From the IMG/VR virus record IMGVR_UViG_3300020152_000019: a DNA stretch of 64,000 nt; one strand, 5' to 3'. This DNA is from a virus. The notes under the pieces were generated by a model that saw only the letters and a list, made by a program, of their open reading frames with translations, ran no database searches and was not told where the DNA came from. The stretch's first letter is position 1; the number at the start of each line of letters is the position of its first letter. Of the stretch, positions 44,634 to 62,598 are shown piece after piece. Made by a program: the position numbers and the translations under genes.

Positions 44634-44709
44634 TCCGCAGTGACCAGAGTGGTAATGGCCTCGACTGTTAATCGAGTATTCACACGTTCGATCCGTGTCT
44701 GCGGAGCCA
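44634..44709 (+). tRNA. trnN: tRNA-Asn(GTT)
   Basis: TCCGCAG/CTGCGGA acceptor stem, CTCGA-CTGTTAA-TCGAG anticodon arm, TTCGATC T-loop, encoded CCA. Confidence 0.9.
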
Positions 44710-45242: not shown

Positions 45243-45332
45243 GGAGGTTTGGCCGAGCGGTCGATGGCACCGGTCTACTAAACCGGCATACGTGTAAACG
45301 TATCTAGGGTTCGAATCCCTAAGCCTCCGCCA
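45243..45332 (+). tRNA. trnS: tRNA-Ser(ACT)
   Basis: GGAGGTT/AGCCTCC acceptor stem, CCGGT-CTACTAA-ACCGG anticodon arm, long variable arm, G73, CCA. Confidence 0.9.
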
Positions 45333-54800: not shown

Positions 54801-55445
54801 ATGAATAAAAAGAAAGTTCTTTTAGCTTGGTCGGGTGGATTAGATTCGACATATTTAATTCAATACTATCTACAAGCAGGTTATTCTGTTGATGTTGTAA
54901 ATTGTAGTTTTCAGAATTCTTCTCAAACTCAAATGAAACGAGAAGATAAAGCCATTAAAAAAATGTTGAAGGGTTACTTTAAAGATAAAGATGTGAAGCT
55001 GTTAGGGAAGTCTACTATAACCTTTACAGGATATTCTTTTAGTAAACTGTTTTTAGGTCAAGTTCCAACTTGGGTTTATAACCTAATCAATTATTTAAAC
55101 TCCGAGCACACTGAAGTGGCGGTCGGATATGTAATGAACGATGATGCTATTTCATTCTTAGATGATATTCGTAAACTCTGGAATAGTTATGCTGGTTTAG
55201 TAAAAGAAACACTACCACCCTTGGTGTTTCCTCTTATTAAATATACGAAAACGTTTATCTATGGAGATTTACATCCAGAGTTAAAAAAACATATCACTTG
55301 GTGTGAAAGCTTTGGACCGGCAGATCTTTGTGGTACTTGTCATTCTTGTAGACGCATGATTGATCTAGGAATACAAACACCACCTATGATTCAGATAGAA
55401 GAGCCTATGAAACCACAATCTATTAAGAAAACAAGAAAGAAGTAA
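54801..55445 (+). CDS. queC: QueC-family PP-loop ATPase
   Basis: LAWSGGLDST PP-loop; TWC...CGTCHSC zinc site. Confidence 0.75.
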   Translation: MNKKKVLLAWSGGLDSTYLIQYYLQAGYSVDVVNCSFQNSSQTQMKREDKAIKKMLKGYFKDKDVKLLGKSTITFTGYSFSKLFLGQVPTWVYNLINYLNSEHTEVAVGYVMNDDAISFLDDIRKLWNSYAGLVKETLPPLVFPLIKYTKTFIYGDLHPELKKHITWCESFGPADLCGTCHSCRRMIDLGIQTPPMIQIEEPMKPQSIKKTRKK

Positions 55446-56943: not shown

Positions 56944-58485
56944 ATGTTTAAAAATGTGAAAATTAAAACACGATTAATATTTGTATTGATGTTTCTATCT
57001 TTACAATTAATCGTAGGTGCGGTAATTGGACTTGCTGGAATTTATGCCGGTAACGAAGAGATGAAGTCTTTGTATGAAGATCGTCTTGTAGCGCTTGCTG
57101 ATTTAGACCAGTTGATTCGTCTTCTTAACATGAATCAACTTGATCTTGCAAAATCAGTGACTGATACTAATCCTGATGAAATAAAATCTATTCTTGCTTC
57201 AATTGAATCACGACGAGACATTTTCGAGAAAACGTGGAATGCTTACATGGCTACCACTTTAACTGCAGACGAAAAGCTCTTCGCAGACCAGTTGACTATC
57301 GAACGTCAAGTTTTCGTCAATGAAGGATTAAATCCTACCATTGAAGCAGTTCGTAAAGGTGACACTGCTGCTGCGATCGAACTCATCCACGGTAAAATGG
57401 AAAAGACCTTCGTACCGGTGCGTGAGTCTATCAATAAACTAATTAAATTGCAAACCGATGTCGCTCTTGAAAGTTATAACGCATCGCAAAGACAATACGT
57501 TTTAATTCGTAATTTTTGTATTTTCGGTGTAGCCGTTGGTTTGTTAATGGCTTTTGGTTCTTGTGTATGGTTAATTAAATCCATTACCACGCCGATAAAT
57601 AAAGCTATTGATATTGCTAAAGGCGTTGCGAATGGTGATCTCACACAACAAATCACTGTTGACTCCACCAATGAAATGGGTGAGTTAATGAAAGCTCTAT
57701 CTGATATGAATAACGGTTTGCAACAAATCGTACTTCAAGTCAGAGGAGGCACCCAGCTTATCAATACCGCGTCTAATGAAATTGCCAGTGGTAACGCAGA
57801 TCTTTCTTCTCGCACTGAACAACAAGCAGCTTCATTAGAAGAGACAGCATCGTCGCTTGAAGAACTTACTTCTACCGTTCATCAAAACGCAGATAACGCT
57901 AAACAAGCGAGTTCTATGTCATTAACAGCCGCAACAGTTGTTAGTGAAGGTGGACAAGCAGTTGAGCGGTTAATTAATACAATGTCTGATATTAGAACGA
58001 GTTCTAACAAGATTACTGAAATCATTGGTGTGATTGATGGTATCGCTTTTCAAACCAATATCTTAGCTTTAAACGCAGCAGTTGAAGCTGCTCGCGCCGG
58101 AGAACAAGGTAGAGGTTTTGCGGTAGTTGCAACAGAAGTCAGAAGTTTAGCGCAACGTTCAGCCGCAGCAGCAAAAGAAATTAAAGAACTCATTAATCGT
58201 TCTGTAATGAATGTGGCTACCGGAAGTGATCAAGTTGAACATGTAGGTACAAAGATTAAAGACGCAGTAGCAAGCATTCAACGAGTCAATGATATCATGA
58301 CTGAAATTGCAGCAGCTAGTGCAGAGCAATCGACTGGCATTGATCAAATCAATACTGCTGTTTCACAAATGGATCAGGTAACTCAACAAAACGCAGCTTT
58401 AGTTGAACAAGCAGCAGCAGCGGCGGAAAGTATGAAAGAACAAGCTAATCAGTTAGCTCAAATCGTAAGTACTTTCAAAGTTTGA
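56944..58485 (+). CDS. methyl-accepting chemotaxis protein (full length)
   Basis: TM1, four-helix sensor, TM2, HAMP, signalling hairpin IAFQTNILALNAAVEAARAGEQGRGFAVVATEVRSLA, methylation helices. Confidence 0.97.
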   Translation: MFKNVKIKTRLIFVLMFLSLQLIVGAVIGLAGIYAGNEEMKSLYEDRLVALADLDQLIRLLNMNQLDLAKSVTDTNPDEIKSILASIESRRDIFEKTWNAYMATTLTADEKLFADQLTIERQVFVNEGLNPTIEAVRKGDTAAAIELIHGKMEKTFVPVRESINKLIKLQTDVALESYNASQRQYVLIRNFCIFGVAVGLLMAFGSCVWLIKSITTPINKAIDIAKGVANGDLTQQITVDSTNEMGELMKALSDMNNGLQQIVLQVRGGTQLINTASNEIASGNADLSSRTEQQAASLEETASSLEELTSTVHQNADNAKQASSMSLTAATVVSEGGQAVERLINTMSDIRTSSNKITEIIGVIDGIAFQTNILALNAAVEAARAGEQGRGFAVVATEVRSLAQRSAAAAKEIKELINRSVMNVATGSDQVEHVGTKIKDAVASIQRVNDIMTEIAAASAEQSTGIDQINTAVSQMDQVTQQNAALVEQAAAAAESMKEQANQLAQIVSTFKV

Positions 58486-60752: not shown

Positions 60753-61343
60753 GCCCGAGTGGTGAAATTGGTAGACACAGCGGACTTATTGAAAAATTGA
60801 GCACCTACGAAAAATGCGGAAGTAAAACTTCAAACTAACCTTCCCGATCAAAAGGGAAAACTTGTAAGAAGGAATTTCGCAACCGAAAGGCGTATAAACA
60901 TTCTTCGGAATGGGTGAATCTCTTCAAATTCGGCGAACACTAAAAAAGCGATGAAGTCAGAGACTTCGCATAGTCGCATTAGCTCGGTGATACCGTCGAG
61001 CTAATTGATGTCAACGCCGAGCCAAGCCTGATAAGATCCTTTAAAGTATGGGTAAACTTCAGGAAGGTGTAGAGACTGTAAGGAGAGGATCTAAGTAGAG
61101 AGGGAGCAGGAATAGGTACCTGTTCACGGCAAGCAATTGCGTGTAATCAAATCGCCTTATCAAAACCCGATCTATACGATCAAGACACAGTCCAGACCAC
61201 GAACAGCGTATTCCATAAGTAGCTTCGGTCTTAACCTAAGCGAAATAGATGGTTGATCTCTGGCGTCGAAAGACGAAGTGGTAAGAAAATCCGCCGCTTA
61301 CCCGAGAGGGGGCGTACCGGTTCGATTCCGGTTTCGGGCACCA
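60753..61343 (+). tRNA. trnL: tRNA-Leu(TAA) split by a group I intron (exons 60753-60787 and 61286-61343)
   Basis: GCCCGAG/TTCGGGC acceptor stem; the splice rebuilds GCGGA-CTTAAAA-TCCGC; long variable arm; CCA. Confidence 0.92.
60788..61285 (+). mobile_element. group I intron (IC3-like, trnL(UAA) type), no ORF
   Basis: P/Q/R/S elements (CAAATTCGGCG, CGCCGAGCCAA, GAAGGTGTAGAGACTG, AAGACACAGTCC), P3 CTCTTC/GGAGAG, P9.0 ACCAC/GTGGT, terminal G after the U34 exon. Confidence 0.9.
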
Positions 61344-61345
61344 GA

Positions 61346-61990
61346 AAAGGTTCGGTAGTGAACCTCCCCTCTAAGCTTCGGCTTAGAGACAAGCCTCCTT
61401 TGGCAACTACCAAAAAGGCTAGGCAGGTAGCCTCCTCTCTGAATTTAGGTTTAGAGCCAAGTCCACTTGGACACCTGCCAGATTCACGTCGTGAGACGTT
61501 TATACTTAGACACCACCGTTGAAAGACGGTAAAGATCCAAAGCTTGCGTGCAGGGGCGGCCTGCTTCAAGAGCCATTTGAAATGCCGTAAAACCACCTGT
61601 AACTGGACTAAGTCCTAAGAGGGTGTAACTAATCCGGTAAGGCAACGGTAGTACTTGAATTAAGAATTAAAACGTGGATCGGTGAATCTTCTCAAAGTCG
61701 GTATGACTAAAAAAGCGATGAGGCTAGAGGTCTCTTAAGTTGCATTAGCTCGGTGTTATCGTCGAGCTAATTGATGTCAAAATCGAGCCAAGCTTAATGA
61801 TTCTATTAGATAACTTTCCTACCGGTGTGTTATTTGATAGTTTCTATTATGAAGGTGTAAGACTAATGGGAAGTACTGTTACTACTAAACTGACAGGAAG
61901 GGGAAGTTGGTAACAGTAAAAGGTCTAACCCATGAGCATAAATGAATCCTCCTGAGAAAAGTGTTCTGTTTATGTTTGTGGTTCTATTCT
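61346..61990 (+). ncRNA. free-standing group-I-derived structured RNA with a multi-hairpin 5' domain
   Basis: 61681-61930 is paralogous to the intron core with compensatory P3/P4 changes; 5' region rich in UUCG/GNRA hairpins; no exons found. Confidence 0.65.
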
Positions 61991-62006
61991 AAGAGAATAA
62001 GGAAAT

Positions 62007-62045
62007 ACCCTCAGGGAGCAATCCCTGAGGTTTCTAAATTTTTCC
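62007..62045 (+). terminator. intrinsic terminator-like hairpin
   Basis: CCTCAGGGA-GCAA-TCCCTGAGG followed by a T-rich tract. Confidence 0.65.
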
Positions 62046-62182
62046 TTGAGTGCGGTTGAACTGTATTTACGATTGTTCTTAGCTTTGCATTCGTGAGAGT
62101 GTAAGGATATTGTAAATGCGGTTGTTATTACCTCCGCATTCGAGAAGAATCAAGAGAGTAACATCTCTTGTATTATTGTCGT

Positions 62183-62515
62183 ATGGAGAGGGTAAAACTT
62201 CTCTGAGACTTTCAAGGTGAAAGGCTTCTGGACGCGGGTTCGATTCCCGCCTCGTCCAATAAGTACATTCTAACGAGTGTGGTTATTGGGCGAGTACTGG
62301 TTTCGACAGGGGTTAAGTAGGTGAGAAGGAACGACACGTCCATGAGCGCGGACGTTAATCTGGGTTCAATAAAGTAAATGCTGCTAATGATAGCCATTTC
62401 CGCGCTGCTGCCTAAAAACAGCTAACGGATGAGGTCACTAATCTAGTTCGCTAGGTTAGGTCGTCTACTCTCCCGATAATGACGGAGTCCTTATACCCCA
62501 AACAGGTAGACGACA
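62183..62515 (+). ncRNA. ssrA: circularly permuted two-piece tmRNA (acceptor piece ends 62258; coding piece starts 62288)
   Basis: T-arm GCGGG-TTCGATT-CCCGC plus CTCGTCC-A precedes GGGCGAG-TACTGGTTTCGAC; G3-U70 pair; tag ORF 62380-62415 (AANDSHFRAAA*); outer ends approximate. Confidence 0.9.
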
Positions 62516-62521
62516 CACGAC

Positions 62522-62598
62522 GTGCCCATAGCTCAGTAGGATAGAGCAACAGCCTTCTAAGCTGTGGGTCGGGGGTTCGAATCCCTCTGGGCGCGCCA
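62522..62598 (+). tRNA. trnR: tRNA-Arg(TCT)
   Basis: GTGCCCA/TGGGCGC acceptor stem, ACAGC-CTTCTAA-GCTGT anticodon arm, CCA. Confidence 0.95.

Follow-up and report, generated by a model that had tools for sequence, protein, structure and literature searches.

A large tRNA-type group I intron in the tRNA-Leu(UAA) gene of a phage

The tRNA-Leu(UAA) gene of a phiKZ-like jumbo phage is interrupted by a 498-nt group I intron of the IC3 tRNA type. The intron is probably a self-splicing passenger without an endonuclease, and its removal would be needed before the phage has its TTA-reading tRNA. In this explanation, which as a whole fits the evidence best and is likely to be right, the intron also belongs to a non-cyanobacterial branch common to uncultured phages and Proteobacteria. 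Positions are numbered within the window, which is the whole 64,000-nt stretch of IMG/VR virus record IMGVR_UViG_3300020152_000019 that was analysed.

The split gene and its group I core

When introns were allowed, ARAGORN called a tRNA-Leu(taa) at 60753–61343 with a 498-nt intron after gene position 35, which is U34 (i(36,498)). The sequence-only reading had placed an ORF-less intron here, and its coordinates and length agree exactly with those from ARAGORN. When the two exons are joined, they form a 93-nt class II tRNA-Leu with the anticodon UAA and a canonical cloverleaf (ARAGORN). Its acceptor stem has 7 bp and its anticodon stem 5 bp, the anticodon loop reads CUUAAAA, the variable arm is long, and CCA is encoded. 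The intron starts with A60788 and ends with G61285, and its junction in the anticodon loop, CUU/a...g/AAAA, matches the Leu.3Ug class, in which an IC3 intron lies between nt 34 and 35. The anticodon stem (60780–60784/61290–61294) forms in the window, and 99% of the cells of the intron family described below are paired there. The longest ORF within the intron has 43 aa (ORF list), a Pfam search of the small ORFs gave no match, and no homing endonuclease was found in the intron ORFs or the flanking ORFs by Pfam and PHROG searches. In a sigma-70 promoter scan, sites were no more numerous than in shuffled sequence.

Default ARAGORN and Rfam at gathering thresholds called nothing at 60753–61343. 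Since such genes are missed by both, the tRNA repertoires of phages, and the codon-usage arguments built on them, are incomplete. A covariance-model search, which had been suggested at the outset, was run with two models. Rfam RF00028 matched 60814–61211 over the full model (1–253) with 37.9 bits (E 5.9e-8) and did not reach its gathering score of 50. By comparison, a 213-nt Leu.3Ug intron in a Burkholderiaceae MAG scores only 39.1 bits with RF00028, and Williams 2020 used a threshold of 18–20 bits for this class. The second model, R1, describes the core of IC3 tRNA introns: tRNA-borne IC3 introns were gathered from IMG/VR and bacterial genomes, and 50 short cores, viral and bacterial, were aligned without the window to give a model of 137 positions. 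R1 scored 92.7 bits on 60917–61200 (E 2.5e-18), covering positions 1–137 of 137.

In the alignment behind R1, 96.5% of the cells are paired in the family structure, including the P7 pseudoknot, compared to 28–45% with slid partners, and double changes are found at 21 of the 31 pairs. A 126-row alignment places P1, P2, P3, P4, P6, P7, P8, P9.0, P9 and the anticodon stem of the window at homologous columns, and the earlier statement that P3, P4, P7 and P9.0 can form and that the G-binding pair is intact was confirmed for each of these elements. The core helices P3, P4, P6, P7 and P8 are paired in 89–100% of family cells, against 32–59% in slid controls, with P4 at 98% and P7 at 100%. P1 is paired in 94% (50–52% when slid) and P9.0 in 94% (35–48%), and the four inner pairs of P9 are at 99–100%. 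At all invariant junction columns, the window has the same letter as the family: the adenines of J3/4 (AAA) and J4/5 (AA), J6/7 (AAGGUGUA, all of whose letters match invariant or nearly invariant columns), the bulged A61073, J8/7, U at -1 (a U in 111 of the 126 rows) and omega-G. At one place in P7 the window departs from the consensus, GACUA/UAGUC, in a compensated manner, having GACUG/CAGUC. A tetraloop-receptor-like motif is seen in P8 (UCUAAG 61090–61095 and UACGA 61175–61179, compared by eye with the family consensus CCUAAG/UAUGG). ARAGORN and R1 together thus bear out that a phage tRNA-Leu(UAA) is interrupted by an IC3-type core at U34/A35, the classical site.

These parts suggest how the intron would be removed. 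The exon end CUU would pair with the guide UUGAG to make P1, with a U-G wobble (U60787-G60799) at the 5' splice site. An external guanosine would then attack after U60787 from the pair G61074-C61192 of P7, which lies beside the bulged A61073 and, by homology, would be the guanosine-binding pair. P9.0 would subsequently bring omega-G61285, which is positioned 3 nt past the 3' strand of P9.0, into the guanosine site, and with the anticodon stem keeping the exons together, ligation would give a normal tRNA reading TTA (and TTG). Judging from its sequence, the intron probably splices itself.

Table 1. Features of the split tRNA gene, its intron and related intron cores (window positions unless another contig is named)
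Feature	Position	Strand	Basis or remark
tRNA-Leu(UAA) exon 1, 35 nt: acceptor, D arm, 5' anticodon stem, C32 U33 U34	60753–60787	+	ARAGORN
498-nt ORF-less group I intron, IC3 tRNA type; last base G61285 = omega-G	60788–61285	+	ARAGORN, Rfam, R1
P1: exon CUU + intron A (60785–60788) with guide UUGAG (60798–60801 used)	60785–60801	+	Sequence reading
P2 (60802–60807/60911–60916) with branched insert of ~100 nt	60802–60916	+	Fold z-score -3.13; alignment to relatives
P3 5' strand CUCUUC; partner GGAGAG 61082–61087	60920–60925	+	Family 100% paired, 4–5 pair types per position
J3/4 AAA, P4 (60929–60935/61015–61021), J4/5 AA, P5 extension of two hairpins (60948–60977, 60978–61005)	60926–61021	+	P5 extension: fold z-score -3.35; 62-nt insert relative to R1
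P6 (CCUG 61027–61030/CAGG 61060–61063) with 25-nt insert	61027–61063	+	Family pairing, R1
J6/7 AAGGUGUA, P7 5' strand (G61072, bulged A61073, GACUG 61074–61078), P3 3' strand 61082–61087	61064–61087	+	
P8 (61088–61091/61178–61181) with 74-nt insert	61088–61181	+	Family 99% paired; R1; insert fold z-score -2.06
J8/7 AAGACA, P7 3' strand CAGUCC (61188–61193)	61182–61193	+	126-row alignment
P9.0 (CCAC 61197–61200/GUGG 61278–61281), ~60-nt insert, P9 hairpin CGUC-GAAA-GACG (61264–61275), UAA, omega-G61285	61197–61285	+	
tRNA-Leu(UAA) exon 2: A35 A36, 3' anticodon stem, long variable arm, T arm, acceptor, encoded CCA	61286–61343	+	ARAGORN
Decayed paralogue of the tRNA-Leu intron core	61685–61933	+	No recognisable host gene; ~340 nt downstream of tRNA-Leu
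Intron cores of IMGVR_UViG_3300025121_000282 (G088)	C1:86740–86878, 102102–102241, 103754–103900		R1

The intron stands out mainly for its size and its intactness. A core of ~175 nt at 49.7% GC is combined with ~323 nt of inserts at 39.9% GC in P2, P5, P6, P8 and P9, and these AT-rich, structured inserts double the size of the intron relative to the usual. (The inserts in P5, P6 and P8 are those seen in the R1 alignment.) In relatives, P2 is a short, GAAA-capped hairpin, whereas the window has its branched insert there. Folding is clearly better than in shuffled sequences for the P2 and P5 inserts (z -3.1 and -3.4) and more weakly so for the P8 insert (z -2.1), while the P6 segment (z -1.0) and the P9 region (z -1.1) cannot be told from shuffles. 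The searches described below turned up no close relative of this particular intron, which leaves the peripheral domains without covariation support. The GAAA loop of P9 is retained. A P2-P8 tertiary contact is uncertain, as the GAAA-capped P2 has been replaced by the branched domain, and the large inserts could lead to slower folding or to a dependence on proteins. The AT-rich inserts point to a long residence in AT-rich phage DNA.

The phage genome and its RNA island

The contents of the window mark it as part of a phiKZ-like jumbo phage, as judged from its genes. PHROG matches include a DNA polymerase, a tail fibre, a UvsX-like recombinase and virion proteins, and a 958-aa virion protein has 57% aa identity to a protein of Bacillus phage AgentSmith and a weaker match to 290 records of mostly jumbo, phiKZ-like phages. 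The ORFs immediately flanking the split tRNA have no PHROG or Pfam match, and no relatives of the phage around its RNA island were found via the 168-aa neighbouring ORF. Two IMG/VR fragments related through the virion protein had no group I intron in the parts examined. AgentSmith, the nearest isolate, has only tRNA-Lys and tRNA-Arg among its tRNA genes. It does contain a strong group I intron (RF00028, 81.8 bits) at MW749006.1:117384–117713 (L162:1501–1830), between two CDSs annotated as "hypothetical protein", where it probably splits one unannotated protein gene.

Several other genes of the window may be mentioned in passing. A full-length homologue of methyl-accepting chemotaxis proteins is encoded at 56944–58485 (+), with 40–52% aa identity to enterobacterial MCPs (tblastn), and a QueC-like ORF (queuosine/archaeosine pathway) at 54801–55445 (+) matches phrog_1550 with E 8.5e-28. 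A tRNA-Ser with the unusual anticodon ACU (45243–45332, +) lies next to a tRNA-Asn(GUU) (44634–44709), and in the ORFs of the window AGT outnumbers AGC by a factor of 2.6.

TTA is the commonest Leu codon in the 42 long ORFs of the window, making up 36.6% of Leu codons (34.6 per 1000), in agreement with the earlier claim that this codon is abundant. It follows that the tRNA is probably needed, which counts against the idea that its gene has been silenced by the intron.

The split gene lies in an island of RNA genes. Its CCA end is followed by ~340 nt (61344–61680, +) that are GC-richer, hairpin-rich and poor in ORFs, and that had no Rfam match at E up to 5. Within the ORF-poor stretch 61344–62150 sits a second intron core (Table 1), and a strong hairpin followed by a U-rich run is found at 62009–62046. 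Beyond these lies a two-piece (permuted) tmRNA (62154–62506 and 62522–62598, +; RF01850 99 bits, RF04321 94.9 bits) with the tag AANDSHFRAAA, directly followed by a tRNA-Arg(UCU). The tmRNA adjacent to the tRNA-Leu fits the betaproteobacterial two-piece model.

The second core is a decayed paralogue of the first. Positions 61678–61793 are 80.5% identical to 60910–61027 (E 8e-26), and the similarity includes the odd P5 extension with its two hairpins. R1 gives the paralogue 24.1 bits (E 0.0011), invariant letters having been lost in J4/5, P7 and J8/7, and none of 7,992 trial exon joins produced a tRNA around it. By eye, its P5a hairpin seems to have been kept by compensating changes (GAAGUC/GACUUC compared to GAGGCU/GGUCUC).

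Such elements evidently do decay in this genome, and one might suspect that the tRNA-borne copy is itself dead or too slow, so that the tRNA-Leu(UAA) gene is effectively a pseudogene, or that splicing needs host or phage proteins. The unusual size of the intron, its four big inserts, the loss of the canonical L2 GAAA hairpin and an Rfam score under threshold would all fit such a state. The core tells otherwise: every invariant base and every helix has been kept, the one change in P7 is compensated, the exons are intact and fold into the canonical cloverleaf, and R1 separates the intron from its decayed neighbour by 92.7 against 24.1 bits. Loss of invariant letters in the copy next door implies that the one in the tRNA gene is under constraint to splice. 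A dead or protein-dependent intron is consequently considered unlikely.

Another suspicion concerns the origin of the DNA. The exons are 92–97% identical to Burkholderiales tRNA-Leu(UAA) genes, the nearest bacterial introns come from Burkholderiaceae, and the immediate flanking ORFs match neither PHROG nor Pfam entries, all of which might be expected if the split tRNA were a piece of bacterial DNA brought in by misassembly or by very recent capture from the host. However, the intron has a GC content of 43% and its inserts 40%, compared to 37% for the phage and 57–62% for the bacterial relatives, and there is no GC break across the RNA island into its flanks. Moreover, the diverged paralogue 340 nt downstream shares the same AT-rich context, a sister intron is present on another viral contig, and no long match to the intron was found in any bacterial genome. 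On the strength of composition and the nearby paralogue, contamination or misassembly was rejected, and a bacterial origin of either kind is very improbable.

Relatives and lineage of the intron

Where, then, does the intron come from? The pattern "tRNA-Leu exon end plus UUGAG guide" had at least 120 matches in bacterial contigs, taking one genome per species. Among the matches listed were Gamma-, Beta- and Alphaproteobacteria, Bacteroidota, Acidobacteriota, Actinomycetota and others; the single cyanobacterium among them had an intron-less tRNA-Leu gene, and none of the 120 listed was a cyanobacterial intron. The Leu.3Ug class is also among the 5,292 split tRNA genes of Williams 2020, and by both accounts it is spread over many bacterial phyla. 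(At least nine bacterial Leu.3Ug introns, mostly from Gammaproteobacteria and one from a Pyrinomonadaceae, measure ~680–706 nt, and this shared size class suggests an ORF inside.)

For comparison, five cyanobacterial trnL introns were fetched separately. Over 209 core columns, the window intron is 66–69% identical to viral and proteobacterial introns and 51–54% identical to the cyanobacterial ones. The window has the letters UUCGGCG in P4, GUGUAG in J6/7 and CCAC/GUGG in P9.0, as do proteobacterial and viral introns, and the letters typical of cyanobacteria, CUCAGGG in P4, GUGCAG in J6/7 and UUCUC/GAGAA in P9.0, are absent from it. In a maximum likelihood (ML) tree of the cores, its sister is the 430-nt intron of a tRNA-Leu(UAA) on another viral contig, IMGVR_UViG_3300020050_005379 (support 95/92), which has the same core blocks and different inserts. 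The cluster around the two, which is weakly supported, consists of introns from viruses, Burkholderiaceae, Achromobacter and Steroidobacteraceae. The tree contained only six cyanobacterial introns (five from tRNA-Leu and one from tRNA-Arg) and no plastid intron, and forcing a clade of the window with five cyanobacterial introns was 37 lnL units worse, a difference at which the AU test did not reject the clade (p 0.138).

The sequence-only reading had called the intron cyanobacterial or plastid-type. This description holds only for the insertion site and for subgroup IC3; for the lineage it is not supported, given the core identities, the P4/P6 and P9.0 letters and the viral sister. In the phylogeny that had likewise been proposed, the free tree joins the window to the viral contig and not to the cyanobacterial introns, and the AU test leaves a common branch with the latter statistically acceptable. 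The intron probably comes from the non-cyanobacterial branch. The tRNA-Leu(UAA) genes of Burkholderiales that its exons resemble are mostly intron-less; exon identity, tmRNA type and intron relatives together hint at a betaproteobacterial host pool.

Searches for closer kin returned little. A blastn search of INPHARED with the split gene matched the 36-nt exon 1 only, and the intron is absent from the isolated phages of that set. A 29-mer from P3–P5 had no matches in IMG/VR, a 22-mer from the 3' end found only the sister contig and two unrelated-looking loci, and two patterns for close relatives had no matches in metagenome contigs.

Introns in phage tRNA genes: occurrence, roles and known systems

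According to a 2014 review, every group I intron known from a phage at that time lay in a protein gene, although phages have many tRNA genes (PMC3984707), and the earlier remark that phage group I introns are mostly described in protein genes agrees with that review. Devoto et al. 2019 described introns in phage tRNAs as previously unreported (PMC6784885), and reviews of jumbo phages mention self-splicing introns only in protein genes. Full-text literature searches yielded no paper on group I introns that interrupt the tRNA genes of phages. Motif scans of IMG/VR nevertheless returned at least 152 places with at least 44 intron-split tRNAs, at least 16 of which were tRNA-Leu(UAA); among the matches listed, the others included Met, Phe, Thr, Leu(CAA), Arg and suppressor-like anticodons. 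The kind of intron is therefore a known one, and its setting in phage tRNA genes is little described yet not rare. The window locus and dozens of similar ones in IMG/VR show that classical group I introns of the tRNA type occur in the tRNA genes of phages, which makes phages a plausible vehicle for the spread of tRNA introns between bacterial phyla.

Some genomes hold more than one. IMGVR_UViG_3300025121_000282, a jumbo-phage contig of 314,886 bp rated 100% complete, has three IC3 tRNA-type cores (R1 106–123 bits; Table 1), and another contig (G087) has two IC3 cores ~560 nt apart. Five tRNAs on viral contigs that are split by IC3 introns were labelled "Stop(tta)", "SeC(tca)" or "Tyr(ata)" by ARAGORN; these may be suppressor tRNAs or the result of miscalled intron boundaries.

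Why would a phage keep an intron in a tRNA that it probably needs? One answer would be that splicing is put to use, either in timing the supply of the TTA-reading tRNA, perhaps inside a phiKZ-type phage nucleus, or as a shield: with the anticodon loop formed only by splicing, host anticodon nucleases or endonucleases targeting tRNA genes could fail to attack the precursor or the gene. The abundance of TTA, the position of the gene in an RNA island with a tmRNA and a tRNA-Arg(UCU), and the recurrence of IC3 introns in many phage tRNA genes, several per genome, which could reflect selection, are in keeping with such a use. Selfish spread, on the other hand, would explain the recurrence equally well, the intron has no sensor domain and no regulator, and its inserts are not conserved. 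Of the 56 complete tRNA-Leu(UAA) genes in IMG/VR that share its 3' half, 52 are without an intron and four have one, which shows that the intron is dispensable. A used intron is therefore quite unlikely. The idea that splicing gates the supply of the TTA tRNA, put forward from the sequence, is true in the trivial sense that a mature tRNA requires splicing, and finds no support as regulation. The intron is thus probably a tolerated selfish passenger, not a regulator.

A bolder proposal is that phage tRNA genes are a major undescribed niche of IC3 introns and that the window intron is more than a passenger. If this were true, its lineage-specific inserts, and the non-splicing paralogue retained 340 nt downstream, might be functional RNA domains; the proposal as a whole is unlikely. 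The 498-nt ORF-less ribozyme with its four natural inserts makes a convenient natural pair with its decayed sister for looking at peripheral domains and core erosion in an Azoarcus-like ribozyme.

Among known systems, the "enigmatic" tRNA introns of Lak megaphages (Devoto et al. 2019, PMC6784885) resemble the window intron in being located in phage tRNA genes, but these short introns lack a group I core. The introns of phage protein genes (T4 td, nrdB and nrdD, Twort, SPO1, AgentSmith) are of the same self-splicing type and phage-borne, and an RNA polymerase intron brings this type into a phiKZ-like jumbo phage as well, a chimallivirus (Birkholz et al. 2024). Unlike the present one, however, the phage introns of this group interrupt protein genes, often together with homing endonuclease genes.

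The cyanobacterial and plastid trnL(UAA) intron of the Anabaena type (Xu et al. 1990 and Kuhsel et al. 1990, as cited in PMC3984707) has the same insertion site, subgroup IC3 and overall helices, and its exons are likewise held by the anticodon stem. It differs in P4/P6 (CUCAGGG/CCUGAGCCAAGC), J6/7 and P9.0, and its core identity to the window is the lower one given above. The Azoarcus tRNA-Ile(CAU) IC3 intron has the same compact architecture, and its J3/4-P4 and P4'-P6 letters are probably nearly identical to those of the window, but it is found in another tRNA and at another position of the anticodon loop, has ~205 nt and possesses the GAAA-capped P2 that the window is without. This intron is the crystallised model ribozyme, and is named in PMC3984707 and PMC13168695.

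Closest of all are the nearest bacterial Leu.3Ug introns, which share the site CUU/a...g/AAAA, the UUGAG guide, the IC3 core without an ORF, the P4/P6 letters UUCGGCG/CGCCGAGCCAAGC, the P9.0 pairing CCAC/GUGG and the 3' end GUGGUAAG, with a core identity of 66–68%. These introns, however, are 205–300 nt long, have 57–62% GC and reside in bacterial chromosomes, whereas the window intron, at 498 nt and 43% GC and with four large inserts, resides in a jumbo phage.
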